Of a stretch of 64,000 bases of DNA, positions 9,009-35,907 are shown piece by piece. This stretch comes from Nitrospirota bacterium (lineage in GTDB: Bacteria > Nitrospirota > Thermodesulfovibrionia > Thermodesulfovibrionales > UBA1546). The notes under the pieces were generated by a model. The model had not been told where the DNA came from. It made no database searches and saw only the letters and a list, made by a program, of their open reading frames with translations. Location: NCBI GenBank assembly GCA_009773185.1, contig WPIF01000008.1:77597-141596 (forward strand), in the 5' to 3' direction. The stretch's first letter is position 1; every line of letters starts with the position of its first letter. Position numbers and translations under genes: made by a program.

Positions 9009-9011
9009 ACG

Positions 9012-11141: not shown

Positions 11142-11176
11142 AATTTACGACTCTATAGAGAAGGGAGGTGAATAAC

Positions 11177-19567: not shown

Positions 19568-19664
19568 AGGGATTTAGGGAATAGGGGAGAGGGCGATATA
19601 GTTTTTTCTGTAGGATAATATGGAAAATGTCCCTATGTTTTTGTTTTAACTCCTATGTTTTAAC

Positions 19665-20354
19665 TTATTGCAGGTATTTATCCGTAAAAGATGCAGCAGA
19701 TGTCAGTAAATCATTTAATTTTTTAGCCAACCACTTTCTTCTCGTGCTAGTGGTATTTATATCGATAACGATGCCTTTTTCCCATAATGTCTGGTTGTGC
19801 TTATCACCGCCAAGGTAATAGTGGCGATTAGGAAGAATGCGGTGTACTAAGATATTTCTAATCTCATTCCACTCTGTAAACTCTGGTGTGTTGATCACTT
19901 GCTGAAGAATATTTGCGATATCTTCATGTTTGAAGGATGATTGAAATTTTTCTGCCGTACGAATAGGTTTTACTTTTTGAAAGTCGGTTGCTGTTGTAAA
20001 TGGGAAATCTACGTTTTTTATCATAGAAGCAATCGCAAAAATTCCATAGTAGAAGGATTCTATTGCAGCGAGTCCTGTTATAAAAAAGCCAAACAATTCT
20101 CTTTCTTGCAAATAAACATTGGCGTGAGAAGGATCAGCACTCCCTTGTCGGACATATTGGGTATAATTCAAATCATGTTCAGTACAAGAAAGAAAGCGAT
20201 ATGCGACTGCATTCCAAGCTCCTGCACATTGTTTCCACAACATAAGGTTAGAATCTTTTCTTTGAGAATAACGAGAATGTATGATTTCATAGGGAGCGAC
20301 AGGGAAATCATCTGGCATTGGAAGTAATAATGAAGAAATGATTTGTTTAGACAT
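19665..20354 (-). CDS. Putative HEPN-like RNase domain protein
   Basis: Helical protein with an R-x4-H motif (WNEIRNILVHR) near the C-terminus, low GC. Confidence 0.55.
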   Translation of the reverse strand: MSKQIISSLLLPMPDDFPVAPYEIIHSRYSQRKDSNLMLWKQCAGAWNAVAYRFLSCTEHDLNYTQYVRQGSADPSHANVYLQERELFGFFITGLAAIESFYYGIFAIASMIKNVDFPFTTATDFQKVKPIRTAEKFQSSFKHEDIANILQQVINTPEFTEWNEIRNILVHRILPNRHYYLGGDKHNQTLWEKGIVIDINTTSTRRKWLAKKLNDLLTSAASFTDKYLQ

Positions 20355-20390
20355 TTAATTTTTTCCGATTCATATACGTATTGCTTTCTC

Positions 20391-20424
20391 GCCTACTATA
20401 ATCAAACCCCTCATCCCTGTCAAT
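20391..20424 (-). repeat. Cassette-head repeat copy A (sigma70 promoter-like, TTGACA-N17-TATAGT)
   Basis: gcctactataatcaaacccctcatccctgtcaat; 39/40 identical to copy B over 20385-20424. Confidence 0.85.
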
Positions 20425-20567
20425 GGGATTTTAAAAATCCTTCTATAAAGCTCGCTATAATGCAACGCTTTTGGCGGAAAAGACGCCCATCATATTTCGA
20501 TGTGTCTTTTCCGCCAGCTTATCTGCTGGAACAGCACTTAAAAATATATAAGCCTATCCAGATGTTG

Positions 20568-20774
20568 TTACTCCTTATCGTGAGTATCATCAGATGGAAC
20601 ACCGGAACCACCTGTGGGAGGAACCTCATCATCTAAAGTTCCATGCGTTGGAATATTTCCAAAGGTATTTAAATCATTAGGTAGAGGTTTATAGCCCTTT
20701 TTTTTAGCAATAGGCTGATTTCCTTCAAGGCACATAGAAGAATTTTTCTTTATTTGTTTCTTATCCTCTGGCAT
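20568..20774 (-). CDS. Small disordered peptide partner of DUF6338-like gene
   Basis: AGGAGG RBS; KKGYKP...PPTGGSGV motif; directly downstream of the DUF6338-like gene. Confidence 0.6.
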   Translation of the reverse strand: MPEDKKQIKKNSSMCLEGNQPIAKKKGYKPLPNDLNTFGNIPTHGTLDDEVPPTGGSGVPSDDTHDKE

Positions 20775-20792
20775 TGTGATCCTCCTATCAAT

Positions 20793-21380
20793 TTAATGAA
20801 ACAATTCGACTGAAACAATATCATCACCCAAGATGATAATCCCTTCAGATCTATCAATTGGTTTTAAGAATCCTCCTTTCTCGTCTAGTTTCCAAACCTG
20901 TTCTAAGTATATTTGTTCTTTTGCAGGGAACGAAGACGTAAATGACTTAGTATCATACTTACCGCCAATTCTTTTTCCATTTTTAAGATGCACAATTATC
21001 CAATATGCCTCCTTCTTGCCAAAAATGTAGTCCCAAGGCTTTTGAATTGGATGTATGATATGTTTTGCTACAAAATTCCAAGTCGATATTTTGACAAAAA
21101 GGATTGGCCAAATAACCGGAAAAACAAACATTATGATAAAGATAGAAACAAAATACCAAGCTTTGTGGTTTGTATAAAACGAATTTAAATGAATAAGAGA
21201 GATTAGCCATGATAAAGCAGCAAAATTAAAGGCACTATATGCAATAGCCTCAAAAGTATCTTTTGAAAAATCTCTGCGCTCACCTGGAAGCAACAGCCCA
21301 TAAATTTTCATTGAAATAAAACCCGGCACAAAAAAAACGAGGAATAACTTTAACTTATCAATTTCAAAAATGTTCATCAA
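20793..21380 (-). CDS. DUF6338-like membrane protein
   Basis: FFVPGFIS N-terminus, 3 TM helices, PWDYIF, V.LKNG..IGG.Y...SF.SS.P...QIYLE, which is the pattern I recall for DUF6338. Confidence 0.75.
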   Translation of the reverse strand: MMNIFEIDKLKLFLVFFVPGFISMKIYGLLLPGERRDFSKDTFEAIAYSAFNFAALSWLISLIHLNSFYTNHKAWYFVSIFIIMFVFPVIWPILFVKISTWNFVAKHIIHPIQKPWDYIFGKKEAYWIIVHLKNGKRIGGKYDTKSFTSSFPAKEQIYLEQVWKLDEKGGFLKPIDRSEGIIILGDDIVSVELFH

Positions 21381-21396
21381 AAACCTCCTTAATTTT

Positions 21397-21500
21397 GTAC
21401 TAAGCGGATAACTCGTTCATAGACTTAATACAAACATCTCAACTCCGCCTAAAAGCCCATTTTCTCGCTTACTATAATCAAACCCCTCATCCCTGTCAAT
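21397..21500 (-). repeat. Cassette-head repeat copy B (promoter 21467-21500 plus GATAAC box 21397-21420)
   Basis: gcttactataatcaaacccctcatccctgtcaat and gtactaagcggataactcgttcat. Confidence 0.85.
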
Positions 21501-21519
21501 AACAAGAAAACTATGCATC

Positions 21520-22539
21520 TCACTTTGAAACAAGTTTCTTGCCTATGTAAGCAGCTTGACTTATACCGGTCAGGGCCAATATTGATGAATCAACCGTTGG
21601 CAGAGAAACTTCAATTGAAGGATCGAGGTATAGCCACATCCGGTAAAAGTTTAACAAATAAATCAATGCGCCAATCAATGTCCATGAGAACATCTGCAGG
21701 TCGCCTAAATCAATCACTTTCTTGTCATCAGTTATTAAATCAAGCAGTAACGGCTTAGAAGCCTTAGATTTTGTTATAGCTCCTGAAGTTACCTGTGAAG
21801 CTGTAATTGCCTTTGCTCCTACGAAAGAGCCTGTGCTGATGCCCATTAATATCCCAAGGTTTTCGGGGATATTGATTATTGAAGCAAAAGACAATATGTC
21901 CGTACCGGCAAAATATCTCTGAAAAAATAAGGTTACATAAGAAAAAATGCCGATAAAAATCCACATAGCCATCTGAAACTTTGAATTGCTGTATCTATTG
22001 TCCTGCCCTACGAAAAGTCCGCCACCTGCTGACTTTAATGCTCCGCTTACTGCCACTAATAGTATCAATGTTAAAGAAATGCCAAATGCCATGCTCATGA
22101 GTTTTACTCTCTTGGGCGTTTTTATTTTTTTCAGAGTTATTGAGTTAATCGCTATCTTATTTCCAGTATCAGCATATTTGATTGTTATGAAATCTTCGTC
22201 CGTCTTAAGCGAGGCAGGGTAAATCGTTCTATCACCGGCAGTAATTGCAGTAGTCGGTCCCAGTTTTATTCTGTAACTATTTGGCAGATTTTTTAGTGTA
22301 ACAACGTATTCTTTTAAGTCGGTCTCTATAGCAGGAGTTTTCGATGCAATGTTCTCTGAAGGTGAAGAAGTTTTTTCCTTATTGAATGTCTCAACCTTTG
22401 TTACCAAGCCTGTAATTGCTCTTTCATCTGATATTGTTTTATCAGATGCAGTTTCAGCCAGAACAGTGTTTGAATAAATAAGAATTAATAACAATAGTCC
22501 CCAGCGACAGAACGACAGCCTTAATTTTGTCCTGTTCAT
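21520..22539 (-). CDS. Hypothetical membrane protein (exported N-domain, multi-TM C-domain)
   Basis: RBS GAAAGGGGG before ATG 22539; signal peptide; YSNSKFQM..W, LMGIS, DLGDLQMFSWT, LTGISQAAYIGKK. Confidence 0.7.
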   Translation of the reverse strand: MNRTKLRLSFCRWGLLLLILIYSNTVLAETASDKTISDERAITGLVTKVETFNKEKTSSPSENIASKTPAIETDLKEYVVTLKNLPNSYRIKLGPTTAITAGDRTIYPASLKTDEDFITIKYADTGNKIAINSITLKKIKTPKRVKLMSMAFGISLTLILLVAVSGALKSAGGGLFVGQDNRYSNSKFQMAMWIFIGIFSYVTLFFQRYFAGTDILSFASIINIPENLGILMGISTGSFVGAKAITASQVTSGAITKSKASKPLLLDLITDDKKVIDLGDLQMFSWTLIGALIYLLNFYRMWLYLDPSIEVSLPTVDSSILALTGISQAAYIGKKLVSK

Positions 22540-22599
22540 ATTCCCCCCTTTCTCAATTAACCTGTCAAATGCAGGTAATATTTTAACTTGAATCACTGA

Positions 22600-22938
22600 T
22601 TACAATAACGGGAACCCTATCTCTGAGTTCACAAAATCCTTTACAATTTTAAGTGCAGCATTTATCGCTGCCTGAACCGCAACAGCAGTCATGCCTTCGG
22701 CTGCAGTCAAAACAGCAGCAGTTGCGACTTTCTGCTGATTGAGAAGAATCTTTGCTTCCGCCTTGCCGATTTCCTGTTTTGCAGACCCTTCAATAATCAT
22801 GCGTAGCGTAATAGCCAGCTTCTCACTTTCTGCTTTAAGGTACTGCTTGACCAATATGAATTTACTTCCGAAAGTGGTCCTGGCTGCCTCAAACATTGCA
22901 TCGCCGAGATTATCTAAAGTTACATTGTCTTTTGTCAT
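22600..22938 (-). CDS. Hypothetical helical protein
   Basis: RBS GAGGGAGG; 112-aa Ala-rich ORF in an operon-like arrangement. Confidence 0.7.
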   Translation of the reverse strand: MTKDNVTLDNLGDAMFEAARTTFGSKFILVKQYLKAESEKLAITLRMIIEGSAKQEIGKAEAKILLNQQKVATAAVLTAAEGMTAVAVQAAINAALKIVKDFVNSEIGFPLL

Positions 22939-22952
22939 GATGCCTCCCTCTA

Positions 22953-23468
22953 TTACTTGTTTTGCTCTAAGCCTTGCTTCTTTGCCAACTCAAGGCTCAA
23001 CGCTGCTGAAATAGTTTGATTAATATTGCGACGACTTATATCTAAGGCCATAGGAGAAGGGCCTTTCTCCTTGCCATCTGCTATGCAATGCATATCCCTT
23101 AGGCTATTACCTTCATCCGAGCATTTTCCTTCTCCTAATATTACAAGTCGGATTTTTTTCACAAGAGAAATTGTCTTATCATTCTTAGGTATAGAATTAA
23201 CCCTAAACTCAAGGCGACGAAGTTGTTGGTCGATATCGTCATAAAAATCTTTATGTTTATCAAAAGCTGCGTCTGCTGTGCCAGCTTTCTTTATCAGGGC
23301 GGCTACGAAATCGTCAGTCTTTTGTTGTATGGCTGTAAGGCTCTTATCGGTAGCCTCATCATAGTCTGAGATGAGCCTTACTCCAACACAGCTTGATAGA
23401 ACCAAGACCACCAGAATGACGCTGAGAAGTGAGATGAGGCGTCTTTGCTGTACTGTCGTTTTGTCCAT
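22953..23468 (-). CDS. Hypothetical lipoprotein
   Basis: LVLSSC lipobox, LISDYDE..D motif, C-terminal LELAKK; RBS GGGAGGAG. Confidence 0.75.
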   Translation of the reverse strand: MDKTTVQQRRLISLLSVILVVLVLSSCVGVRLISDYDEATDKSLTAIQQKTDDFVAALIKKAGTADAAFDKHKDFYDDIDQQLRRLEFRVNSIPKNDKTISLVKKIRLVILGEGKCSDEGNSLRDMHCIADGKEKGPSPMALDISRRNINQTISAALSLELAKKQGLEQNK

Positions 23469-23562
23469 TAACTCCTCCCTTTTTTAAATTTTTCTAATCA
23501 GGCAACTTTTTGCCCCTTGAATAGAGAAAATCAATAATCTTGCTCTACCTGCTGGTTGCTGT

Positions 23563-24177
23563 TCATTGAGCTTGAAATTGTTTTCGTAGTTCCTCAATTT
23601 TTACGTCTGGAAAGTCTTGAATGTATTCGATGATGTTTTTCCACCAAGGGTGAAACCCATATCCCCCGTTAATCATCTCTTCGATGGCCTCCTCCTTGGT
23701 CCATTTATCGTAAATGACGCGGTACATCGAGGACATCAAACCAGTCCGATCAGCGCCAGCCTGACAATGAATGAGAAAAGGCCCATTTTCTTTGTGTGAG
23801 AGAATCTTCATCACCTTGATCACGTCTTCGTCCTCAGGATGCCACGCCTTGACGTGCAATCGCTCATCTGGCAAAGCCGTTGAGCACATTTTTTCATAAT
23901 TGTCAGAATGAAATGATCTCAGATTAATGACCGTTTTTATTTTCATCACATCACAAAGTTGTTTCATTCCCTCTTCAGTTGGTTGCGCACTTCTGTAAAT
24001 ATTATTGTTTATCTTGTAGAAATTGGGAACATTGCAAGTATTCTTCATTTGAGTAGCCCATTTTTCAGGACGTTGGCCAATCGTTGAGGTTGTTTTACAC
24101 GTCACACAAGCTGACAAAAGAAACACAATTGCCAAAATAAATAGTACAAGGTAATTTCTCAATGTTGGTCTTCTCAT
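23563..24177 (-). CDS. Dual-specificity/tyrosine phosphatase family lipoprotein
   Basis: IYRSAQP, VINLR, HCQAGADRTG (CX5R), LLSAC lipobox. Confidence 0.9.
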   Translation of the reverse strand: MRRPTLRNYLVLFILAIVFLLSACVTCKTTSTIGQRPEKWATQMKNTCNVPNFYKINNNIYRSAQPTEEGMKQLCDVMKIKTVINLRSFHSDNYEKMCSTALPDERLHVKAWHPEDEDVIKVMKILSHKENGPFLIHCQAGADRTGLMSSMYRVIYDKWTKEEAIEEMINGGYGFHPWWKNIIEYIQDFPDVKIEELRKQFQAQ

Positions 24178-24218
24178 ATTCTCTCCTTTTTATCAGTAAA
24201 TGGAAAAATCAAAATTCG

Positions 24219-24253
24219 GCTTACTATAATCAATCCTCCTTTCCCCTCTCATT
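24219..24253 (-). repeat. Cassette-head repeat copy C (degenerate -35)
   Basis: gcttactataatcaatcctcctttcccctctcatt; the patatin TGA stop lies at the -35 position. Confidence 0.75.
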
Positions 24254-25301
24254 CCCCCGGTCTATTAACAACCTTATTCTTAGGGTTGTCGTACCATTGA
24301 AAATACGTCAGTGTATTTTCTCTGCCTGATTGGACCAATGCCTCTTTAGTCTTATCATCAAGGTCAAACTGCGTTGTTTTTACTCCCAGCGTGTCTATGT
24401 AAATAGTCCTCTGCCAGTCATCGCTGTGAAGGTGCTGGTTTGTCTGAGCCTCCATGATGGTTTCAATCAACCCCCATGTATAATCAAAAAAGTTATCAAT
24501 CTTGTACACAGGCGGTTCTGAATGGTTCCTGAACATATTTATCTCTTCCTTTGAATCAAGCCTGAATCCGAGGGTTTCTTTGTTATAGACATACGGGCTT
24601 ATATTGTTGCCCCATGATTTTAATCCAAAGTTGGTTTTCTGGTAGTATTCCGGCAGCAGGGAGTTTTTGCTAAGGTCGGCGTCATCGATATATTTTTTCC
24701 TGTCGAAGAGCTTTACAGGATAATTATCAAGGACTCCTCCGTCAACATAGATGTCGCCTCTTACGCTTTTTACAGCTGAGAAGAATAGGGGGATTGACAT
24801 CGAAATCCTGACTGCATCTGCAACAGAAGTGCGGGGTGTATGCTCATAGGAAAATATGGATGAGAAACGGGTTGAAAGGTTGGTGCCGACAATGTAAAGG
24901 TCTCTGAAGCCTTTTTTACTTTTCTGGTCATTAAGGTCTCTGAATGTTGCTTCTTTGTTACCTGTTTTCTGCGCAATAAGTTCAGCTATCCAGTTTCTGA
25001 AAAACTCGCCTTTGTACCATCCAAAACTTTCTATTAATCGCGCAGTGTCTCTTATATAGCCCCATGAATCATCAAGGAACTTTTCGAAATCCAGGTCACT
25101 GAGGATTTGCTTTATATCCTGATTCGAATAGTTCAATGCGAATAAAACAGCATTGATTGCTCCTGCCGATGTTCCGCCTGCTCTTTTTATCCTGTGCAGT
25201 ATTCCCTTTTTATCCAGTTCCTCCATTGCCCCTGTATAGGCGATTCCCTTAACCCCGCCGCCTTCAAAGATTAAATTCTTAAACGGATAAATCAAATTCA
25301 C
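24249..25301 (-). CDS. Patatin-like phospholipase
   Basis: GGGVKG, GTSAG (nucleophile Ser), SMSIP, DGG. Confidence 0.92.
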   Translation of the reverse strand: MNLIYPFKNLIFEGGGVKGIAYTGAMEELDKKGILHRIKRAGGTSAGAINAVLFALNYSNQDIKQILSDLDFEKFLDDSWGYIRDTARLIESFGWYKGEFFRNWIAELIAQKTGNKEATFRDLNDQKSKKGFRDLYIVGTNLSTRFSSIFSYEHTPRTSVADAVRISMSIPLFFSAVKSVRGDIYVDGGVLDNYPVKLFDRKKYIDDADLSKNSLLPEYYQKTNFGLKSWGNNISPYVYNKETLGFRLDSKEEINMFRNHSEPPVYKIDNFFDYTWGLIETIMEAQTNQHLHSDDWQRTIYIDTLGVKTTQFDLDDKTKEALVQSGRENTLTYFQWYDNPKNKVVNRPGE

Positions 25302-25348
25302 CTCTTTTTTGATGACTATGCTGAAAACCGTTTATTTTATAAGTTGCC

Positions 25349-26593
25349 CTAAATCCTTTTTGTACGGTGCAAACCGATTGCCGGCTTGCAGACGCCTATT
25401 TCTGCCGGCCTATTTCCTATCAAATTCTTTCTCATAACAACAGGCACTTCTTTTGGAGTGATGTTAAGTTCGCTTCTAACCCAGCTGCAGATTGTCATGT
25501 CTAGCCCGAGTTTGTCCGCATGCTCTTTCAGTTTCATCATTGCCTTATGAGTAAACTCGCGGTTCGGCGCCACCCTGTTTTTGTGTTTCACATTATTCTT
25601 GTTCTCCGGGGCTGTATATAATTCATAAAGCTTTTTTTCCATGCTCTTATCAATGTACCCTGTCAATTGACCAATCCAAGCGAGATTTTTAATACTCAGT
25701 GTCAACATCTCAGGTTTGAATCCTTTGAGATTCGCCTCTTTGAATTTTCTCAATAAATCATCAATAGTCTTATCTGTAAGAAACGCAGGTATGGCGGGCT
25801 GGACTACTGCCCAGTCTGCTTCTATTTTGTTTTCCTGACATAGTACAGCGGCTTCCAGTCTGTTTTCAATTGATGCAGCTCTGGGTTCCAGAACAGGATA
25901 TAGCTCTGGCGGCATTACCGATATGCTCGTATGGTATACCAAATTGCCGGAAAGCTTCCTCATCAGATCCAAAATTGTATCTCCGTTGTTTTTATATTGC
26001 AGTTCTTCTTTTCCCGCTTTTGAAAGGACAAACACCTTTGATTTTGATTTGGGTTTTTGCTTGAAATAAGCTATAAATTCTCTGAGAATATCATGAGCGG
26101 TCCCTGTCTGGAGCGTAGATTCCTGGAACGGTTCTGTTTGCGGGGCGAAGTAATAACAATGGTCTGCTCCATTATCCTCCGTTAATTTACGCCTTAAATA
26201 TGAGGCGTAGTTCTTGTAAAGTTTCTTCGGCGCTGAATGATCGCCGTCCACAACCAGACAGTACAGGCAATTGACATTGCATCCTGACATTGGATTTACT
26301 TCCAGAACATCTATCGGGCATCTGCTGGTATAGCGATGGGTTTTTAAAGGTTCATCCAGAGGAATATCTTCCAACAAACACGATAACTCTGCTACCAGTG
26401 ATCTATTTTCGTATTTGTTAACAAAGTCAGACGAACCTTTTTGGAGTTCATGAAGGGTCTCCTTTGAAGGTCTTACCCCAACCTTTAATTCCTCTAAATA
26501 CGGTTGATTTATTATTCTGGGAGCAAAACCGTGCATTTCATATAGTTTGCTCTTACTTTCCCTCAATTTATTTAATCTAACATGTTCCGACAT
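25349..26593 (-). CDS. Radical SAM protein, spore-photoproduct-lyase-like
   Basis: NPMSGCNVNCLYC (CX3CX2C), TEPFQ, LSK, LEPRAASIENRL; no SPASM cysteines. Confidence 0.78.
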   Translation of the reverse strand: MSEHVRLNKLRESKSKLYEMHGFAPRIINQPYLEELKVGVRPSKETLHELQKGSSDFVNKYENRSLVAELSCLLEDIPLDEPLKTHRYTSRCPIDVLEVNPMSGCNVNCLYCLVVDGDHSAPKKLYKNYASYLRRKLTEDNGADHCYYFAPQTEPFQESTLQTGTAHDILREFIAYFKQKPKSKSKVFVLSKAGKEELQYKNNGDTILDLMRKLSGNLVYHTSISVMPPELYPVLEPRAASIENRLEAAVLCQENKIEADWAVVQPAIPAFLTDKTIDDLLRKFKEANLKGFKPEMLTLSIKNLAWIGQLTGYIDKSMEKKLYELYTAPENKNNVKHKNRVAPNREFTHKAMMKLKEHADKLGLDMTICSWVRSELNITPKEVPVVMRKNLIGNRPAEIGVCKPAIGLHRTKRI

Positions 26594-26666
26594 ATGTATC
26601 CCTCCTCATTGATTATAAAAACTTATTTTTCGGCATATACTAAAAATAAGGCCAATCGCCCATTTC

Positions 26667-26714
26667 TTAATTGTGGATTCCATTTAAGAAATATGGGCAT
26701 CCATATTTGTCCAT
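26667..26714 (-). CDS. Putative 15-aa peptide MDKYGCPYFLNGIHN (below ORF-track cutoff)
   Basis: Strong RBS GAAAGGAG 7 nt upstream of the ATG; sits directly before the SPL-like radical SAM gene. Confidence 0.45.
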   Translation of the reverse strand: MDKYGCPYFLNGIHN

Positions 26715-26812
26715 TTTTCTTCTCCTTTCACTCTCCGCAATGAGCAGTTCGATTTGGATTGGTGGAGTCAGTATACTTTAAGAAGTCGTAGTAATTGCCT
26801 TAGGATTTCTCC

Positions 26813-28231: not shown

Positions 28232-28253
28232 AGACCCTCCTGACTGAGTTCAA

Positions 28254-28296
28254 CAGCGCTATCCCGATATATGAAAAGCAAATCAGGATAGCGCTG
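28254..28296. terminator. Stem-loop between precursor-like ORF and rSAM gene
   Basis: cagcgctatcc (28254-28264) and ggatagcgctg (28286-28296) form a perfect 11-bp stem. Confidence 0.65.
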
Positions 28297-28309
28297 CTTT
28301 CGGCATGAA

Positions 28310-28516
28310 TCAATCTTCGCACATTTCTTCTGCAAGCGTGAAAGCTTTAGTTATAACCTTAGCTGATTCCGCAGAAACTTTTATGGGAAGATCTTCTCGG
28401 TTAATGTGAAACTCCAGCACCTTTTTGAAAGGTTTAATCTTTGAGTCTTTCTCAGTTGGTGATATTTCAATAGTTATTTTCGCTACTCCTTCAGACATTA
28501 ACTTCCTTTCAGCCAT
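28310..28516 (-). CDS. Putative RiPP precursor / small partner protein (68 aa)
   Basis: RBS AAAGGAG; first gene of the rSAM module; C-terminus TLAEEMCED. Confidence 0.6.
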   Translation of the reverse strand: MAERKLMSEGVAKITIEISPTEKDSKIKPFKKVLEFHINREDLPIKVSAESAKVITKAFTLAEEMCED

Positions 28517-28598
28517 TGTTTTTTCTCCTTTGTTATAGATTGTTGTTGCTCGGAAAACTTACTTATTACTTACTATCCTCCTTTCCCTGCCCACGCGA

Positions 28599-28697
28599 AG
28601 CAGATAACTTGCTCATTCCGGATTGCGCTTATTCGATTTAATTTCAGGCCTACTATAATCAAACCCTTTCTCTGTCAATGGCGTCTCTCGTCCTTGG
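28599..28697. repeat. 99-bp direct repeat copy D (GATAAC box plus promoter-like repeat)
   Basis: Identical to 31633-31731 by eye. Confidence 0.93.
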
Positions 28698-31593
28698 CTT
28701 TATAACTTCTAATCTCTATTCCTTTATAGATTTTCATTGCCCCGCCATTCTCAGTTGTAATATTAAAAATGAACTGTGACACTACACTGGGTGATAATGC
28801 TTGCAATTCCCAGTTCAAAGTATAGGCGCCGCCGGGAGGTAGAACTTCCGGAATTTTTGAGTCCGAACTCCCCTTTACGCTGCCGGGGAATTTTACACTG
28901 ACCCTTAAATTCTTCAACTCGACGTTACTCTCATTAACAAGAGTTAAATTTGCAAAAAATCTCTCGCCTGTTTTAACAATTTCAGGCATTTTCAGCGACC
29001 ATGAAAATAGCGGCATGACCTGAAATGGGACTACTGCATAAAAATGTTTTTCCATACCGAGCACTTTGACTATCACGCCGTAAGAATTGGCAGCGGATAA
29101 GTTCACCGGCAAGCGATATGATCTGGAGATTTTATAAGTCTTCCCGCGATTCAGGTCTATTTTTTCTGTAAATGATTTCAGCACGGAATCCGGCCATTTC
29201 TTGGATGTCGGATCATCATTTATCAGAGCAATCTCGACATTGCCCCTGAGTGTACTGTCCAGTACATTTTCGACTGCAATATCCATCAAGACTTCATCTC
29301 CAACACGGTATATCTCCTTATTCAGTTGAATTCTTACTGCCGAGTTCAGTGGAGGTGAACAAGTCCAATGCCCGATACCCCAGTATCCTTGCAGGCAGAG
29401 ATGCTCTAACCAATTCGCAATATAATTGAAATTCTGGTTCGGCTCCTTGCAAGGGGTGTTATACCCGAATGTCACATCGGAATTATTATCTGATACCTCC
29501 TGGGGCGCCCAGCCAGCCCCTGCCATAATCACATCGTCATCTGCTTTCTTGGTAGCAACACCCCGTGTGCTTCCAAACGTTGCGCGTGTCTCCGGCTGCA
29601 TGGAAGGGTATTCATGGGGGTGTAGTATATACCACTGTTCAGCCATCGTGCTGCTCTTAATTCGCGCTTCAGTCCATGTGTCGAAATTCCAGTTATACCC
29701 TCCGAATTCAACAGCCGCATCAGCGGTGGCAGGATGTGCCGGAATGCCGACAGCCCTCAAGAGCGCGGTAAGTATATTCGCCTCATCCGCGCATTGCGCT
29801 GATGAATGATTCGTCAACAGATCAATTACATCATTGGTGTGATAATTCAGGTCGTATATAAAGTGATTTGCAACCCAATCGTGCAGAAGTTTGGCAGATA
29901 TGTAAGAATCGACCTGCCCGTTAACCTCTTTAATTGCAGCGCCAAAAACACGGCTATCGTCCGGATGCAGAGTGTAAGTAAGCGCCCTGTCGCTTCCCCA
30001 GCCCGAACCGAACCAAATTCCGATTTCACCCTTATCGCTCAGTCCGAATTCCGCGGGAGCTGATACTTCCGAGGGGCTGAAAATCACATAAAACGGCATC
30101 GATTCACTTATACTACCGGCATTTGAAGTTAGTTTCAGAGTCGCTTTATACTCTCCGACAGGTATTTCATCCGGGATAAGATTCCACAGGGAACTGCTCC
30201 AGTCCCACGAACCGCTCCAATAACCGCCTGAGAAGGTTAGGAGTATAGTCTTTGCCAGTCGCCCCTTGGAATCCGTAATTTCAACGCTGACACTTGTTGC
30301 ATCATCCCTGCCCTTAACCATAAAGTATGGAGAGCATCCTGTCCCACGCGTATAAACTAACGCTTCCACCGATGTTTCCCCTGCTTCGGGCTTAAAGAAT
30401 TCATGCCCGTTCTTCATTATGAGAAGTTCTTTTTGTTTGACCATCCCTTCATTGACCTTTACAGGAATAGATGAGGGACTGGTGCACGCTCCAAGAGACT
30501 GAGTCACGGTTATTATCTCTCCTCCGACTGCAGGATGAATGAGATTGATTTTTGCGCCACCGCCGTCTCCTATAGGTGTCCCGTCGGCATAAATACGTAT
30601 ACGGGCGTCAGGAGCAGTGCCTGATACGATTATAAAGTCATCTCCCGCACAAATAGGAGATACGGTTGGAGCGGGAAGTTCGACGCAAGGCTTAACAGTT
30701 GTCGGGTCTGACGGGTCGCTTATAATATTGCACAGTTTTTGAATTGAAGTTAATTGGTCTCCTGCCGAAGGTTGAGGATCCAGTCTGAATATCTGGCTTC
30801 CACCAGAGCAGTAATGCCCGGCAATTTTCTGGTTTCCATTATACACTTCAACCATTGCTCCGTTGGTAATATTGTCGACTGTGCAGTATTTACCCCCTTC
30901 ATATACTTCCCTCACTGAAGGCTTAGGTAAAGATACGGGAGTTTCCAAAACAGTTTCCATATCCGATTTCGGACTGGTCTTTTGGCAGAGCTTTTCAGTT
31001 GCATGTACTTTTTGATCTTTGACAAATTGTGGATTTACGAAAAGCCATTGACCTGCTCCACAGCCGTTTACATCGCCGACAAGGTTACCATCTGCAAACA
31101 CTTCCAAGAGTCCGCCTTGCGCCAGGTTGCCGACACCTATTGCTCCTCCACAATTGTACAAGGGTATAGGACGAATTTTAGGCTTTGGTAGTCCTTCAGG
31201 GTGTGTTTCAAAAAATGATACAACCTTTACCGGCTTGGACGGTGGACTTGTTACACCGTCTACGGTTTGTGTAGCAGTAATAAGCTGTCCGGCGACTAGG
31301 GGAGGGTTAACTGAAAAGCTTTGCCCCCATGGCGCATCCGATACTCCTCCACCGATGTGTGTAGCATTATCAGCATAAATATCAATTTTAGCCCCAGGTA
31401 CAAAGCCCTGAACAGATACAGCAGTTGCACACTCATAGAGAGGGGAGCTAACTGTAAGCGGCGACAATCTGGATTCTTCATCATAATCAGGTTTTGGCGG
31501 TTTTGGACAAAATGGTGGGCAACACCCCCCCAGATAGAGAATCAGGATTGCTAATAATACGAAGAAATTCCACCTGCTGGATAAAGATTTCAT
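28675..31593 (-). CDS. Large lipoprotein with repeated Ig-like modules and a transglutaminase-like domain
   Basis: YLGGC lipobox; four ~85-aa P-x-V...GA.I.IYADG...ITATQ repeats; QCADEANILTALLRAVGIPA; CARDB-like C-terminal domains. Confidence 0.85.
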   Translation of the reverse strand: MKSLSSRWNFFVLLAILILYLGGCCPPFCPKPPKPDYDEESRLSPLTVSSPLYECATAVSVQGFVPGAKIDIYADNATHIGGGVSDAPWGQSFSVNPPLVAGQLITATQTVDGVTSPPSKPVKVVSFFETHPEGLPKPKIRPIPLYNCGGAIGVGNLAQGGLLEVFADGNLVGDVNGCGAGQWLFVNPQFVKDQKVHATEKLCQKTSPKSDMETVLETPVSLPKPSVREVYEGGKYCTVDNITNGAMVEVYNGNQKIAGHYCSGGSQIFRLDPQPSAGDQLTSIQKLCNIISDPSDPTTVKPCVELPAPTVSPICAGDDFIIVSGTAPDARIRIYADGTPIGDGGGAKINLIHPAVGGEIITVTQSLGACTSPSSIPVKVNEGMVKQKELLIMKNGHEFFKPEAGETSVEALVYTRGTGCSPYFMVKGRDDATSVSVEITDSKGRLAKTILLTFSGGYWSGSWDWSSSLWNLIPDEIPVGEYKATLKLTSNAGSISESMPFYVIFSPSEVSAPAEFGLSDKGEIGIWFGSGWGSDRALTYTLHPDDSRVFGAAIKEVNGQVDSYISAKLLHDWVANHFIYDLNYHTNDVIDLLTNHSSAQCADEANILTALLRAVGIPAHPATADAAVEFGGYNWNFDTWTEARIKSSTMAEQWYILHPHEYPSMQPETRATFGSTRGVATKKADDDVIMAGAGWAPQEVSDNNSDVTFGYNTPCKEPNQNFNYIANWLEHLCLQGYWGIGHWTCSPPLNSAVRIQLNKEIYRVGDEVLMDIAVENVLDSTLRGNVEIALINDDPTSKKWPDSVLKSFTEKIDLNRGKTYKISRSYRLPVNLSAANSYGVIVKVLGMEKHFYAVVPFQVMPLFSWSLKMPEIVKTGERFFANLTLVNESNVELKNLRVSVKFPGSVKGSSDSKIPEVLPPGGAYTLNWELQALSPSVVSQFIFNITTENGGAMKIYKGIEIRSYKAKDERRH

Positions 31594-31632
31594 TTACCTT
31601 CCTCCTTTATGTAATTTTTTCTGCCTGCACTG

Positions 31633-31731
31633 AGCAGATAACTTGCTCATTCCGGATTGCGCTTATTCGATTTAATTTCAGGCCTACTATAATCAAACCC
31701 TTTCTCTGTCAATGGCGTCTCTCGTCCTTGG
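31633..31731. repeat. 99-bp direct repeat copy E
   Basis: Identical to 28599-28697, including the 3' codons of the transglutaminase gene. Confidence 0.93.
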
Positions 31732-31843
31732 TGCGGGCAGGAAAGTATATTGTTTTCTCAAAAATAAATCTGTCCCCTTTTTGCACTTTTTGCATTTAAA
31801 ACATGCCGGATCCTTATTGTTTTTCTATGCAAGGCTGTTTTCT

Positions 31844-33052
31844 CTACTTTATCTTTAGTCTTTCCAAGCCGCTGATTACATCCCCGCCGATGTTTAAAGA
31901 AATCGGCAATGTGTGTGTGTCTCCTCTCTCGTCTCTGACTTCTGTCTGAATCTCCCATACAGGTGAAAACCTGCCAATCGGGGCCAGCGCGGGTTTGTAC
32001 CGCAGTTCAGGAACTGCTGTTTTAACTATTTCGCCTTTATATGCACGAAATTTCTTACGCAACGTGCTGTTAATCGCCTCCATGTCAATGATATATTTCT
32101 GCTGATGCTTGAAGTAACGGAGTTCTTCGAATGAGCCGTCATAGGCATTGAAGATGGCTGCCAATCGGGAATCTTTAAACGGGATCAAGTAATAGGAATA
32201 GGTGTCTGCTTTTACCAGTATCGGTTTCTCAGTCCTGATATCTCCTTTCAGAACCTCGAAGGATTTCCGGGCGAGTCTTCCTTCTCTCGCTTTTCTGAGC
32301 CAATCAGAAAAGTATCGCTCGATTTTTTCCACAGGAAGAATCTTCCCTTCCAAAACCCATTTGGGCGCTCTGACGGTTATTTTTGCCTTTGGCGGCTCGA
32401 TTATGGCGATGTACTTGTTGTGCCATGCGCTGCCGGCTTTGTTCAGGGGAACCCCCCAGTATGAAGAGCTTGACAGCCAGACAGCGCCACTCACCCACAT
32501 TGAGGAGGGATTCCCTGGTAAGGGATCATAGAAGAATATGTTCTGCAAGGTGACAACTCCGGAAAAAGGAGGTTTTACATCACTCTGAAATCCGATTACA
32601 GTTACCCAGTGCTCGCTGTCGCCAACCGATACCGGCATCAGATATTTTTGGGTGTCAATGTAATACAACATTTTTCCAAGAACAGTGAATTTGTCCGTAT
32701 TCGAATAGTCAGACCAGTGGCCGCAGGGTAAAATAGCAGGGTCACTCAATACGCCTCTGACGCCAGCCGGACTGCTGAACCACAGCGCGGGCTCGGAATT
32801 GTGCAATACGATTGAATTGTATATATCGTCCTGACTGTTGTAGTGCCGGGCGGTCAAGGTAGGGCAGGAATTGAGAGACATCTGAACACAGGCCGGTCCG
32901 CTGTAATGGTCTTGCTCCGCAACATAAGGCAAGGGAGGAACCGGCTGAACATCAGGCAACATTAGAGAATAACACATAGCGCTGCTTGCAGCGAATGTTA
33001 GTTGAAACAGTACGACTGCCAGAACTGTCAAAAATAAATATTTGGTTTTCAT
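31844..33052 (-). CDS. Secreted protein with C39-like papain-fold domain (Ser at the expected catalytic Cys)
   Basis: Signal peptide; EQDHYSGPACVQM, SQDDIY, HWVTVIG, FFYDP. Confidence 0.65.
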   Translation of the reverse strand: MKTKYLFLTVLAVVLFQLTFAASSAMCYSLMLPDVQPVPPLPYVAEQDHYSGPACVQMSLNSCPTLTARHYNSQDDIYNSIVLHNSEPALWFSSPAGVRGVLSDPAILPCGHWSDYSNTDKFTVLGKMLYYIDTQKYLMPVSVGDSEHWVTVIGFQSDVKPPFSGVVTLQNIFFYDPLPGNPSSMWVSGAVWLSSSSYWGVPLNKAGSAWHNKYIAIIEPPKAKITVRAPKWVLEGKILPVEKIERYFSDWLRKAREGRLARKSFEVLKGDIRTEKPILVKADTYSYYLIPFKDSRLAAIFNAYDGSFEELRYFKHQQKYIIDMEAINSTLRKKFRAYKGEIVKTAVPELRYKPALAPIGRFSPVWEIQTEVRDERGDTHTLPISLNIGGDVISGLERLKIK

Positions 33053-33069
33053 TTTTTTTGCCTCCTGTA

Positions 33070-34524
33070 TTATGGTCTATCAATAGTTACATGCCAGGTG
33101 TCTTCCACGGCGTGATAGATCAGACCATAGCCATTTGTGGTTCGTTTGCTCGCTGTTAGCCTGAACTGGTATGCACAGTCAGACATTATCGCTGGGGTAT
33201 AGGTATTACCTTTATAATCAGTGATGTAGCCGAAGCCGCCCTGCCATAACGGACTGCCTCCTGCATTGTTATTGTAATTGTCTTCAGCTTTGCTGGGTGC
33301 TGTTGGCTTGGGACTGACAGACGCATTATGCCCGTAGATTGCATTCAGCGCATAGTCCTGCAGGTGTCCGCGCTGATCGTAGGCGCGGAAGTTCACACTG
33401 ATTTTATCGCTTATGCCTGTGCCGAAGTTGAGAATTTGGCATACACTTTTGCTGACCCCGTTGAGTTTCATATCCAGAATCTTCACTGTAGGCGGGGTAT
33501 TGTCTATCTGGAGAACTATTTCGCCATAGTTGGGGTCAATGATAATATCCGAACTTGTAGCCGGTATCAAAGTTGTACCTGACTGCTTATATGCAGCTAT
33601 CCTGAACCTGGTGAGTCCATCTGTTACCAGAGTGGAGTTAAATATGGCTACACGGTCAAACCATGACCATGGCGTGTTCGGCCTAACGAAATATGGCACT
33701 CTGTAAAGATTATTTATGCCTCCGTAAGAGACAGGCCCCATTGATTCGGACACCCAGTGCCAGTTAAGCGGATTTGGATCTGACGTGCTATACCACTTGT
33801 TGGGCAATGATGTTTCGATATCGGCCCATGTGATCCCGCCGTCTGCACTGTACTGCACTTTGTAGTAGGCAATTTGAGATTGACTTCCAAACCAGCCGAA
33901 CATGTGTAAGGCGCTGCCGTAAGGCTGGTCAGTGTTTGCTCCGGTAAAACTGTACGGCGCTTTCCGGGGGCGATGATAGCCTTGACTGGTAACAACGCTC
34001 CCTTTAGAGTCAATATTTGCCGTCTCGTGATTGCCGATTCTTGTGAACAGGAAAAGTTTGTTGTTCGGAACCGAGCCGGGGGTTACTGCCGGATTAGAGC
34101 AGACAGCCAGCGGCGATGCCACGTTCAACGATATAGTTGCGGCAGATGCCACATTCCAGTGCGTCCCTGAAGCATTTTCTTCGTAAATAGCTTCGGCAGA
34201 TCCGTTGGTATTCTGGGTGAACACAAAGATAATATCCGGTCCGCCAATTTCAAAGCCACCTCCGGAGGGCCATGTAAATGTTAATGTAAAATTACCGCTT
34301 TCATTTACAGTTGCAGTTGCCAAAGCCGGACTGTTAATTGCATACGAACCGCCGGGCAAAGGATCGATTTCAAAAACTTTAACCACGGCTCCATAGGGTA
34401 CCCAGCCAGACATTGTGCATTCGGCATGGCCATTGACTGTGTAGGCAAACGCCTGGCTGTTACCAGCGGCAAGAACGAGCACAGCTACCAGACAAATCAG
34501 CCACATTGTTTTTGTGAGTTTCAT
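33070..34524 (-). CDS. Hypothetical secreted beta-rich protein
   Basis: Signal peptide (SQAFA), RBS GGGAGG, YYKVQYS, IDNTPP, CAYQFRL..KRTTNGY. Confidence 0.8.
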   Translation of the reverse strand: MKLTKTMWLICLVAVLVLAAGNSQAFAYTVNGHAECTMSGWVPYGAVVKVFEIDPLPGGSYAINSPALATATVNESGNFTLTFTWPSGGGFEIGGPDIIFVFTQNTNGSAEAIYEENASGTHWNVASAATISLNVASPLAVCSNPAVTPGSVPNNKLFLFTRIGNHETANIDSKGSVVTSQGYHRPRKAPYSFTGANTDQPYGSALHMFGWFGSQSQIAYYKVQYSADGGITWADIETSLPNKWYSTSDPNPLNWHWVSESMGPVSYGGINNLYRVPYFVRPNTPWSWFDRVAIFNSTLVTDGLTRFRIAAYKQSGTTLIPATSSDIIIDPNYGEIVLQIDNTPPTVKILDMKLNGVSKSVCQILNFGTGISDKISVNFRAYDQRGHLQDYALNAIYGHNASVSPKPTAPSKAEDNYNNNAGGSPLWQGGFGYITDYKGNTYTPAIMSDCAYQFRLTASKRTTNGYGLIYHAVEDTWHVTIDRP

Positions 34525-34527
34525 TTT

Positions 34528-34614
34528 TTACCTCCCTTTAAATATTTTTCCCTTCCCGAACCGTCTGTAGATACCACCCTTTTTTGTTTTTACAACGTTC
34601 ATTTTCGTTTTCAT
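34528..34614 (-). CDS. Possible 28-aa basic peptide MKTKMNVVKTKKGGIYRRFGKGKIFKGR
   Basis: GGAAGGAGG RBS upstream; its stop abuts the start of the next gene. Confidence 0.3.
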   Translation of the reverse strand: MKTKMNVVKTKKGGIYRRFGKGKIFKGR

Positions 34615-34641
34615 AAATAGCCTCCTTCCATCTCCCCGCCC

Positions 34642-34767
34642 GCACTGAGTAGATAACTTAACTTGTTCGTATTCGCATTGCGTATACATCCTCAAAATTT
34701 GAATGATAGACGCAATATAAACCGACTTTTCAGGCTTACTATAATCAACCCTCTTCCCCATGTCAAT
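34642..34767 (-). repeat. Cassette-head repeat copy F (promoter 34734-34767, GATAAC box 34642-34670)
   Basis: gcttactataatcaaccctcttccccatgtcaat reads TTGACA-N17-TATAGT on the minus strand; gcactgagtagataacttaacttgttcgt. Confidence 0.82.
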
Positions 34768-35082
34768 TCCCTAGGAATCATCAATTTTCCGGCGGGCAGG
34801 TGGGATGATTTGCTCGAATAAAACACTATAACTAGTTGAAATAACGATATTTTTCTTAGCCTTAAATCCTAATTTTTATGCGCTGAAATCAGAGTTACTA
34901 ACAACGCGCTTGCAATAAATGTAATAAAAAAGCCAAGAAATGTAATGTTTTTCTATGAAAGTACGATGTATCTTTCATCTTGACATCACTATAGCCCTCT
35001 CTTTATTATTAAGGCGCTCTGACATTATGTCTCTGCCGAGTTAGGGCTGGTTATCCTGAAGCTTTTTATTAAAGGGGAAGAT

Positions 35083-35811: not shown

Positions 35812-35907
35812 TATACAGGCAGCTTGCCGCAATCATGGCGAACTGTCAATCACAGACTTCTGCCCGCAAAATAACAATCCATACAATGAAAATGTTACGA
35901 TAATATC

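Follow-up and report, generated by a model that had tools for sequence, protein, structure and literature searches.

How do unrelated, co-oriented modules come to share a single chromosomal interval, each behind a copy of the same promoter-like repeat? This question is raised by the island between cysM and obg in the 2.79-Mb genome of a groundwater bacterium (G000), which we analysed within a 64-kb stretch of its DNA (the window). The GC content of modules A-D is 34-42%, compared with 46-47% in the flanks, and this low-GC cargo reads as foreign. The features of the island are as follows.

18659-19567, plus strand: cysM-like PLP enzyme, conserved left flank of the island
19665-34524, minus strand: 14 island ORFs, given module by module in the lines below
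20385-20424, minus strand: copy A (ATTGACAG-spacer-TTGATTATAGTAGGC-GAGAAA; TTGACA-17-TATAGT, 11/12), upstream of a 229-aa gene
20464-20540, minus strand: junction hairpin (GGCGGAAAAGAC...GTCTTTTCCGCC), upstream of copy A
21461-21500, minus strand: copy B, upstream of a DUF6338 gene and a 68-aa ORF
24213-24252, minus strand: copy C, with degenerate -35 (ATGAGA; 9/12), overlapping the patatin stop and upstream of a phosphatase/lipoprotein operon (ORFs of 358, 112 and 171 aa and a PTP-like phosphatase)
28582-28697, minus strand: copy D and long repeat (promoter with 15-nt spacer, and leader), with the transglutaminase TGA inside its -35; module of a 68-aa peptide, rSAM (414 aa), rSAM/SPASM (472 aa) and patatin
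31616-31731, minus strand: copy E and long repeat, 99 nt identical to D, upstream of a 972-aa transglutaminase-like lipoprotein
34633-34659, minus strand: leader motif AAGTTATCTRCTCAG..GGGC, also at 31618-31644 and 28584-28610 and, diverged, at 21400-21414
34728-34767, minus strand: copy F, the one closest to the regulator, ahead of a small ORF and secreted proteins of 484 and 402 aa
35083-35811, plus strand: response regulator with AraC-type HTH, divergent from copy F
35908-36924, plus strand: obg, conserved right flank of the island

The repeat and its junctions

GCYTACTATAATCAA has six exact matches, at 20391, 21467, 24219, 28648, 31682 and 34734, and all are still exact when two mismatches are allowed. 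The number expected by chance is 0.31, and six copies were reached in none of 100 shuffles. Read on the minus strand, each copy has the form of a sigma-70-type promoter, and one precedes each of the six modules. Copies A, B and F share the form TTGACA-N17-TATAGT, agree with the consensus at 11 of 12 positions, and are the top three minus-strand promoter-like sites in the region; the plus-strand site before the regulator gene likewise scores 11/12. Copy C reads ATGAGA-N18-TATAGT. The spacer of copies D and E is 15 nt long, and these two are missing from the promoter-scanner results because that length falls outside the 16-18 range. Neighboring copies are the most alike: A and B agree at 39 of 40 positions with an identical block of 31 nt, and D and E share 99 identical nt (28599-28697 and 31633-31731) within a 116-nt repeat at 94% identity. 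Two upstream genes end inside a -35 element, the patatin ORF (24249-25301) on a TGA in that of copy C and the transglutaminase ORF (28675-31593) on a TGA in that of copy D. In all these respects, from the six copies and their promoter form to the likeness of neighbors and the overlapping stops, the description given in the sequence-only reading is borne out. Its assignment of the 229-aa protein to HEPN was not, with no family found in Pfam, NCBIfam or PADLOC; in the Atlas a HEPN family occurs in 12% of the members of the rank-13 cluster, which is a lead only.

The general promoter form is ATTGACAG, a purine-rich spacer, TTGATTATAGTARGC and then NNGAAA, the likely transcription start. Alignment of 19 copies showed no change at 14 of the 15 core positions in 17 of them, with variable spacers and flanks, and all 20 of the listed exact or one-mismatch copies are oriented toward downstream ORFs. 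From consensus quality, position and orientation we infer that the copies give transcription to the DNA behind them. Around the -10, TTGAT and ARGC are kept more strictly than a promoter would obviously require.

The core described in the sequence-only reading is present, but the actual unit is longer and more mosaic, with leader segments and sometimes an upstream hairpin. The shared block may be 27, 40, 116 (99 identical) or ~170 nt long, and its boundaries fall into several classes (core edge, end of the leader motif, end of the hairpin). Different junction types have just ~15-17 nt of identity in common, and ~170-nt junction blocks are conserved between genomes though the genes on both sides differ. 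Ahead of the junction hairpin stands GCAGATAAG, the leader motif in inverted form, and in G001, G003 and a metagenome contig (L029) promoter copies have homologous blocks upstream of them. The leader motif is also found outside the island, upstream of two lipoprotein genes that have no such promoter, and is therefore a general 5'-UTR motif. A known cis-regulatory RNA was considered and rejected: the sole Rfam match at E<=1 was a spurious miRNA hit (E=0.48) to the junction hairpin, and RNAalifold predicted no pairs across nine leaders.

This architecture could suggest a MITE-like element, ~250 nt long and ending in inverted repeats (CCCTGCCCGCAACGGCAGATAAC ... GTTATCTGCTCAGTGCGGGCAGG), that contains a hairpin and a promoter directed outward, has multiplied locally and now stands between the genes. 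The 3' element before the hairpin does match the inverted leader motif at ~20 of 26 positions with one gap, and conservation of the ~170-nt blocks between differing genes would be in keeping with such a unit. Both arms, however, are present at few junctions (copy A and G001-14506 are without the right arm, and B, D and E without the left), and an ungapped inverted-repeat search placed the arm pair no higher than chance-level pairs. The occurrence of the leader motif beyond the island also counts against an element-specific arm. MITEs are normally dispersed, whereas this repeat is restricted to one interval, and no target-site duplications were seen. We therefore regard a MITE-like origin as very unlikely.

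It appears extremely improbable that the array was produced by assembly error or by the merging of co-existing strains into a chimera at the repeats. Independent contigs from run X3 stop at A, B, D and E, so the module order across these copies rests on the original assembly, and the same run has alternative flanks at 28698 and 31732, which indicates that a second strain is present. Against this, copies C and F are each spanned by a single independent contig with no differences, and at least eight other assemblies contain this promoter between unique flanking sequences; the repeats themselves are therefore no artefact.

Distribution and turnover in relatives

All six exact motif matches in G000 lie within the island, with none elsewhere in the genome. 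A profile scanned over 20 genomes of the family gave 15 matches at E<1e-6 (six in G000, three in G001, four in G003, and one each in G002 and G011), and all 15 lie between aspartokinase/cysM and obg, the next best match having E=7e-4. The positive genomes comprise all four of the genus and one of a sister genus. The motif is thus confined to the cysM-obg interval, and the scattered placement upstream of core genes that the sequence-only reading named as the mark of an ordinary regulon was not seen in these five genomes. A gapped pattern applied to 185,579 species genomes found eight loci, five in this lineage and three singletons without the G-rich spacer. In a third genus an empty site is present, with cysM and obg 138 bp apart in G006. 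The profile search found no promoter copy at the cysM-proximal end of the array.

Every relative compared departs from G000 in which modules its island has and in their order; these comparisons rest on ~9 independent assemblies, several of them fragments. Nine of the 14 island ORFs are without an ortholog in the islands of G001, G003 or L026, with flanks that are 84-97% identical. Homology breaks at the repeat, where the sequence-only reading had suggested looking for gain, loss or reordering. Among 210 copy pairs, nine share at least 20 nt upstream with homology ending 0-7 nt past the core, and ten share the downstream side only. The patatin gene with its own leader lies behind an A-type upstream half in G002, a D/E-type half in G001 and runs X4/X5, and an F-type half in L026. 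Contigs from other groundwater populations join 19642 to 20394 (the 229-aa gene is missing and the break lies inside core A), 25290 to 28672 (the rSAM cassette is missing), and an A/B-type promoter to the transglutaminase leader. Within the core, the R position tracks the downstream gene, the spacer tracks the upstream side, and the exchange in the patatin fusions is therefore narrowed to ~12 nt (TTGATTATAGTA). An interval this short is also what a site-specific core would be expected to give. The observed fusions could all be deletions from a larger ancestral array, and a rooted set of many genomes is needed to tell gain from loss.

The proposal that the site is duplicated at each acquisition holds in part. 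It fits the D/E pair, but the rSAM cassette lies directly behind core D and there is no promoter copy between rSAM and patatin. Relatives of the rSAM maturase at E<=1e-60 were absent from 120 other genomes of the order. A homolog of the transglutaminase lies outside the island in G004, where it is without the island promoter or leader.

These patterns bear on whether the island could be an ordinary local regulon, in which the repeat is kept for recognition by a regulator or RNA polymerase and turnover comes from unrelated insertions and deletions, with no causal part for the repeats. In the window, G001, L026 and L027 the gene for the AraC-type regulator and the first copy are divergently oriented, and an ortholog of the regulator is present in the three genus genomes G000, G001 and G003 (81-82% identity), which have exact copies. 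A second AAATTGAC lies 18 nt upstream of the -35 in four of five regulator-proximal copies, including AAATTGA(C/T) at copy F, and the TTGAT of the core follows a further 18 nt on, a spacing that looks like a row of half-sites; the strong conservation of the core is likewise compatible with protein binding. On the other hand, G002 lacks a regulator ortholog (best match 29%) and none turned up at the G011 locus, though both keep a promoter copy, and in G003 regulator and promoter copy are 3.3 kb apart. Regulons are normally dispersed, yet no copy lies outside the one interval in five genomes. Selection for binding would not by itself explain how patatin came to follow upstream halves of three kinds, each fused within the core, or the identical 99-nt D/E block. 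A local regulon as the full explanation is thus rather unlikely. The regulator may nevertheless control at least copy F, without being an obligatory partner of the promoter.

Recombinases and the mode of exchange

Pfam searches of 66 ORFs in the window detected no recombinase except an IS200-like Y1 transposase (2111-2779), in agreement with the earlier remark that no integrase was in view. PF00589 was not found in the window, and the sole weak fragment on its contig lies ~23 kb ahead of where the window begins. G000 encodes two full tyrosine recombinases, which are on other contigs and have like-scoring matches in all four genus genomes, from which orthology is inferred. None of these four genomes has an integron integrase (TIGR02249) over the cut-off, the best matches being Xer-like C-terminal parts, and none has a serine recombinase. 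Y1 transposase genes exceed the cut-off in each of the three genomes that have exact copies and are only weak in G002. In none of the assemblies is a recombinase encoded within the island or next to it.

Nor does the architecture of the repeat favor the integron-like mechanism that the sequence-only reading had proposed. No consistent inverted repeats flank the promoters (two of 19 at p ~0.04); arms of the form ...GATAAC / GTTATC... lie ~230 nt apart, depart from the attC purine/pyrimidine core pattern and are found together at few junctions; and the repeat block varies from 27 to ~170 nt. The island has no intI and no attC-like sites, and in place of promoterless cassettes served by a common Pc it has a promoter-like copy at the head of every one of the six modules. 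An inverton was rejected as well, with flanking inverted repeats at chance level, serine recombinases in none of the four genomes, and promoters that all face downstream ORFs. The signs on tandem accretion at an att site are mixed: direct repeats are present, but there is no cysM-end copy, the core has no dyad symmetry and no recombinase co-varies with the motif, the Y1 transposase pattern covering four genomes.

A broader form of site-specific gene capture would make the core TTGATTATAGTARGC the crossover site of a recombinase encoded elsewhere, whether Xer-like, a Y1 HUH enzyme or an unrecognised one. The near-invariance of the core amid variable spacers and flanks, the breaks within 7 nt of its edge in nine pairs, the ~12-nt exchange interval, the rSAM cassette directly behind core D and the distribution of the Y1 genes are all consistent with this. 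Such capture is nonetheless improbable in light of the recombinase searches, including the placement of the tyrosine recombinases on other contigs with counterparts in all four genomes, the core's asymmetry, the shortage of flanking inverted repeats, the differing block boundaries, and the missing cysM-end copy that tandem att accretion would leave. Since block length is variable and the boundaries are of several classes, general recombination fits better than a fixed att site.

On balance we consider it probable, though only modestly so, that a locus-restricted junction of terminator hairpin, promoter and leader both drives each module and acts as portable homology for general recombination. 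The cysM-obg interval would be a lineage-specific insertion hot spot that turned into a hypervariable island of independent transcription units, each headed by a locus-restricted sigma-70-type promoter within a mosaic junction element which, in its fullest form, would have the hairpin upstream and shared 5'-leader segments downstream. Because the junction copies are the sole sequence common to the unrelated modules, they could provide homology that travels with any of them. Recombination or slippage between non-allelic copies would then delete or duplicate modules; a crossover with copy-bearing DNA would insert a module between two copies, as may have happened with the identical D/E pair around the transglutaminase gene; and double crossovers at two junctions would swap the intervening DNA between strains. 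The machinery would be the general recombination and replication functions of the cell, with no dedicated integrase. Some observations run against this mechanism, among them the strict conservation around the -10. The 15-17 nt of identity between junction types is short for RecA-dependent exchange, and the rSAM cassette without a second copy is not predicted by simple repeat-mediated insertion.

Related systems and the island cargo

Integrases, transposases or exchange via flanking core genes are the usual explanations offered for accessory-gene islands. In chromosomal integrons, and in CALINs, which are attC clusters without an integrase, attC sites are imperfect palindromes of 57-141 nt with RYYYAAC/GTTRRRY cores at the cassette 3' end, and integrons use a common Pc. 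The present island resembles these in its co-oriented, unrelated modules of mostly unknown function at one site, with a short repeat at each boundary and different content in relatives. It differs in having neither IntI nor attC-type palindromes, and in a repeat of variable length that is 5' and itself a promoter, so that the modules, often operons of two to four genes, would be self-expressed.

In staphylococcal SCC composite islands, Prochlorococcus tycheposons, Xer-dependent IMEX and Acinetobacter pdif modules, the att or dif cores have recombinase-binding symmetry and the repeats number one more than the elements. They share with this island unrelated tandem modules bounded by 15-30-nt direct repeats at a conserved housekeeping gene, and their elements without a recombinase of their own can use one in trans. 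Here, in contrast, the repeat is an asymmetric promoter with no cysM-end copy and no correlated recombinase. Neisseria Correia elements and enterobacterial ERIC/IRU are likewise small intergenic repeats with inverted-repeat ends that can supply promoters or hairpins and mark recombination breakpoints; those are dispersed genome-wide in tens to hundreds of copies, whereas the island repeat is found in a single interval and most copies are without one arm.

There is a likeness, too, to replacement and additive flexible genomic islands, variation hot spots and orphan Rhs/CDI arrays, which combine high cargo turnover with conserved anchors and no dedicated integrase, and in which internal conserved segments allow cassettes to be displaced by general recombination. 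The P2/P4 hot spots (PMC9122126) are an example of variation exchanged by homologous recombination in the conserved flanks. In all of these the anchors are flanking genes or conserved coding segments, whereas here the anchor is a repeated regulatory element with many slots.

If general recombination at the junctions is correct, a promoter doubles as the recombination scaffold of a multi-slot island, and the insertion site and the expression of acquired genes are solved together without a dedicated enzyme. An uncultured groundwater lineage would provide a specific case open to testing, and locus-restricted repeated promoters would be a pattern to search for elsewhere. If instead the core is both promoter and crossover site of an unrecognised recombinase, a groundwater Nitrospirota lineage would have a second, integron-independent gene-capture platform, in which every module arrives behind its own strong promoter at one housekeeping locus. 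Most of the cargo is of unknown function. Lipoproteins and secreted proteins are among its members, together with one patatin-like lipase, one transglutaminase-like protein, the phosphatase and the radical-SAM peptide cluster, and niche-specific roles at the cell surface or in antagonism may make it worth attention.

Promoter copies confined to one interval

The copies of the promoter-like repeat are restricted to a single locus, stand at the head of every module, are far better conserved than the sequence around them and lie at the breakpoints that distinguish one island arrangement from another. All six copies proposed in the sequence-only reading were recovered. The 15-mer GCYTACTATAATCAA, the core shared around the -10 position, has six matches in the window when two mismatches are permitted, and all six are exact. 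Only 0.31 matches are expected by chance, and six were reached in none of 100 shuffles. Each copy heads a different and unrelated module, as follows (across copies A, B, D and E the modules are given in the order of the window's assembly).

Cores of the promoter copies and the modules behind them
20391, minus strand: copy A, nearest cysM; 229-aa protein of a widespread unnamed family
21467, minus strand: copy B; DUF6338 protein and a 68-aa ORF
24219, minus strand: copy C; PTP-like phosphatase lipoprotein and three unknown proteins
28648, minus strand: copy D; 68-aa peptide, SPASM-type radical SAM maturase, second radical SAM protein and patatin-like lipase
31682, minus strand: copy E; 972-aa transglutaminase-like lipoprotein
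34734, minus strand: copy F, nearest the response regulator gene; two secreted proteins of 484 aa and 402 aa

On the minus strand each copy reads ATTGACAG, then a purine-rich spacer, TTGATTATAGTARGC and mostly NNGAAA. The promoter-like reading holds, including its three spacings. Copies A, B and F are TTGACA-N17-TATAGT (score 11/12) and are the top three minus-strand sigma-70-like sites of the region, the -35 of copy C is degenerate (ATGAGA, followed by N18; 9/12), and the spacer of copies D and E is 15 nt. Neighboring copies are indeed the most alike, with A and B identical at 39 of 40 positions and D and E sharing a 99-nt identical block within a 116-nt repeat. Two upstream genes end on the TGA at the -35 position, which is the stop codon of the patatin ORF in copy C and of the transglutaminase ORF in copy D. 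All six copies are oriented towards an ORF or operon on the minus strand, 36-131 nt downstream. From the near-consensus hexamers, the orientation and the distance to the ORFs we infer that copies A-F are active promoters.

In the window's own genome (G000, 2.79 Mb) the exact 15-mer occurs at the six island sites alone, and among 41 related genomes it is found in two congeners only (three copies in G001, four in G003). A promoter profile built from 19 copies and run over 20 family genomes gave 15 matches with E<1e-6 (six in G000, three in G001, four in G003, and one each in the congener G002 and in G011, a member of a third genus). Every one of these lies between aspartokinase/cysM and obg, and the next-best match has E=7e-4. 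A gapped pattern applied to one genome per species (185,579 species) found eight loci. Five belong to this lineage, and one of these, a 2.7-kb contig filed under a different name, has the same patatin gene (95% identity). The remaining three are singletons that lack the purine-rich spacer, and chance alone would give about this number. Four further true loci (L026, L027, L029 and L030) came from a metagenome collection. This distribution across genomes and metagenomes, with copies in relatives and a single interval occupied, implies that the motif is neither a regulon scattered upstream of many core genes nor an artefact of a single assembly. In contig C19 of G000 a tandem 102-nt repeat (70334 and 70436) contains CTGTCAAGC followed by TTTATTATAGTAGGC, which is one mismatch from the core. 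Neither site is detected by the promoter profile, and we took both to be unrelated.

Variable contents of the cysM-obg hot spot

The cysM-obg interval is 16.3 kb in the window and ~2.9 kb, with one promoter copy, in G011; in G006, from a different genus of the same family, the two genes are adjacent with 138 bp between them. Across about nine assemblies, several of them fragmentary, island content differs in every one, so that neither the order nor the content of modules is invariant among relatives. The island flanks are 84-97% identical, and for 9 of 14 window ORFs the islands of G001, G003 and L026 contain no ortholog.

Island arrangements in relatives (P, promoter copy)
G001: regulator / P-484-402 / hairpin-P-patatin-287 aa / hairpin-P-229 aa / three more genes / cysM
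L026: regulator / P-patatin / degenerate P then four genes / P-287 aa / P-336 aa / cysM
G003: 484-402, then four other genes and the 358-aa gene
G003, cysM side: P-207 aa / hairpin-P-TPR protein and OLD-family nuclease
G002: obg / P-patatin, without the regulator gene

The cysM-proximal island end in relatives holds small toxin-antitoxin-like genes and no promoter copy. G002 and G003 have a Phd/RelE-like pair in common at 81-92% identity (locus L047, G002:C47 1-1330; L017 5120-5956), and G001 has an RHH protein (L014 17027-17281). In G002 and G011 the locus is flanked by REP-like palindromes, for example of GATTGCCACGC...GCGAGCAATC types (L046, G002:C134, ~775-860; L047 ~2250-2500, reverse strand; L053 ~8140-8260).

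The GC content of modules A-D is 34-42%, against 46-47% in the flanks. The module earlier described as HEPN is present behind copy A, and its relationship to HEPN proteins is only a weak lead. The 484-aa protein of module F has look-alikes of the Ig-like/β-sandwich type. The peptide and the two radical SAM proteins behind copy D (25349-28516, GC 38%) form a probable RiPP cluster. Their SPASM maturase is PapB/SCIFF-like (170 bits, under the equivalog cut-offs); in a sample of 120 other genomes of the order, no relative of it reached E<=1e-60. A homolog of the transglutaminase in another relative (G004), 74% identical over the first 384 residues, lies behind an ordinary terminator without the island promoter or leader, indicating that the promoter is supplied by the island rather than brought by the gene. 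Matches to PADLOC defence models were limited to the patatin gene and the OLD-family nuclease of G003, and on this ground we rejected the view of the locus as a recognisable defence island.

Breakpoints and the junction element

Homology between relatives breaks at the repeats. The window and L026 are similar from obg, across the regulator, up to the final base of core F, after which the similarity shifts to the patatin leader. The patatin gene with its homologous leader stands behind three different upstream halves, which are A-type in G002, D/E-type in G001 and F-type in L026. The 210 pairs of copies were compared by ungapped extension, which undercounts some of the orthologous ones. Nine pairs have 20 nt or more in common upstream of the -35, with similarity stopping 0-7 nt past the core, and ten share the downstream side only. 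The A/G position (R) of the core tracks the downstream gene: it is A before patatin and before the 484-aa gene (three contexts each) and G before the 229-aa gene (both contexts). This places the exchange in these fusions within TTGATTATAGTA.

Contigs of other groundwater metagenomes (runs X3-X6, with the uncovered island parts in X4-X6 left out of evidence) carry further joins. One links 19642 to 20394, removing the 229-aa gene with a break within core A; another links 25290 to 28672, where the radical-SAM cassette is missing and the transglutaminase gene is kept; and on a third the AAGTTATC motif is the point at which an A/B-type promoter passes into the transglutaminase leader. Run X3, a sample from the study to which the likely source belongs, has alternative flanks at 28698 and 31732, which show a co-existing variant carrying the G001-type hairpin.

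The boundaries are of several classes. The D/E repeat starts at the end of the G001-type hairpin and ends inside the leader motif, a shared 5'-leader segment downstream of the promoter. The leader of the G003 copy before the 484-aa gene is D/E-like up to this motif and F-type beyond it. A 170-nt block comprising hairpin, spacer, small hairpin and promoter is conserved in the window, G001, G003 and L029, with different genes upstream and different genes downstream. What the junctions have in common is therefore a mosaic element whose ends are not fixed.

The leader motif AAGTTATCTGCTCAG is not significant by itself, with four matches in the window against 2.37 expected and four reached in 19 of 100 shuffles. 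In the form GTTATCTGCTCA..GCGGGCAG, followed by a Shine-Dalgarno sequence, it lies at window positions 34633-34659, 31618-31644 and 28584-28610. It occurs twice outside the island in G000 (C38:32219 and C1:55811), directly upstream of in-operon lipoprotein genes and with no promoter, and may serve the organism's secreted-protein genes in general, as a 5'-UTR or intercistronic hairpin. An inverted copy, CCTGCCCGCAACGGCAGATAAC, stands just before the junction hairpin that precedes some promoter copies (window 20517-20540; L014 12195-12262 and 14370-14440; L029 ~1540-1610). The 484/402-aa module of G001 lies between this inverted copy and the leader motif, and their ~20/23 complementarity could reflect pairing of mRNA ends or a relic of terminal inverted repeats. 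An Rfam scan of 19000-36000 at E<=1 gave a single match, a spurious miRNA on the junction hairpin, and the consensus RNA structure of nine leaders had 0 pairs.

Proposed module exchange, possible regulation and neighborhood

The promoter copies themselves would be the substrate of these rearrangements. If two direct copies recombined, or if replication slipped from one to the other, the intervening DNA would be deleted and the upstream half of one copy left joined to the downstream half of the other, which is exactly the product seen in the observed fusions. A single crossover with DNA bearing one copy would insert a module between two initially identical copies, an outcome matched by copies D and E, which flank the transglutaminase gene and are identical over 99 nt. 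Crossovers at two junctions would exchange cargo among strains.

The integron-like mechanism suggested in the sequence-only reading did not survive. The island resembles an integron in its co-oriented unrelated cargo at one site, its boundary repeat and its turnover between relatives, but fails every defining integron feature that could be tested. No integron integrase above the model cut-off (0/4) and no serine recombinase was found in the four genus genomes. G000 has two full tyrosine recombinases, both on contigs other than that of the island, and like-scoring matches, presumably orthologs, are present in all four genus genomes; none is linked to the island. That no integrase is in view was borne out, the sole recombinase-like window gene being an IS200-like Y1 transposase (2111-2779) 17 kb from the island. 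This gene adjoins an RHS-repeat protein gene (47-1630), and Y1 transposase genes score above cut-off in G000, G001 and G003 and not in G002. The islands of relatives contain no recombinase except, behind the promoter copy of G011, a 56-aa fragment resembling the N-terminus of an IS200/RAYT-like transposase, which we take from its N-terminal motif to be of the Y1 family. Inverted repeats flanking the promoters are at chance level (2/19 at p ~0.04), and so the promoters are not invertons.

We prefer general recombination by the cell to a site-specific enzyme because the length of the shared block is variable, the boundaries fall into several classes and no recombinase was found. Three observations run counter to this view: no more than ~15-17 bases are identical between different junction types, core conservation is stricter than promoter function seems to require, and the radical-SAM cassette lies behind core D with no second copy. 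They leave a small probability to an enzyme dedicated to the core.

We class the arrangement as a new form of island plasticity mediated by repeats, in which a repeated promoter serves as the internal anchor of a multi-slot island. It appears to differ from att-site accretion arrays, and it is unlike dispersed MITEs that bear promoters and single-slot hot spots whose cargo is exchanged via flanking genes; SCC, tycheposons, pdif modules and Correia elements served as comparisons. To our knowledge such an arrangement has not been described; a literature search gave only integron, SGI1 and phage-hot-spot papers.

In the window, G001, L026 and L027, the first copy has a divergent neighbor encoding an AraC-type response regulator, of which all three genomes with exact copies have an ortholog. 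In four of five regulator-proximal copies AAATTGAC (AAATTGA(C/T)) lies 18 nt upstream of the -35 (window 34790-34770, minus strand), and in the same four the TTGAT of the core follows 18 nt further on, giving AAATTGAC-18-AATTGACA-18-TTGATT at copy F. This spacing looks like a row of half-sites, and control of copy F by the regulator is a reasonable guess. The regulator's own promoter-like site is near-consensus (TTGACA-18-TATTAT, 34980-35009, plus strand, score 11/12). G002 and G011 keep a promoter copy without the regulator, and in G003 the two are 3.3 kb apart. No repeated promoters were seen beside the 50%-identical regulator paralogs in G005 and on G003:C222.

Elsewhere in the window, a type II secretion or type IV pilus-like cluster (5794-12195; GspK-like, PilN, PilO/GspM and secretin) is followed by DUF6627 and C39-like peptidase genes. 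This cluster may bear on DNA uptake or on export of the island's secreted products.
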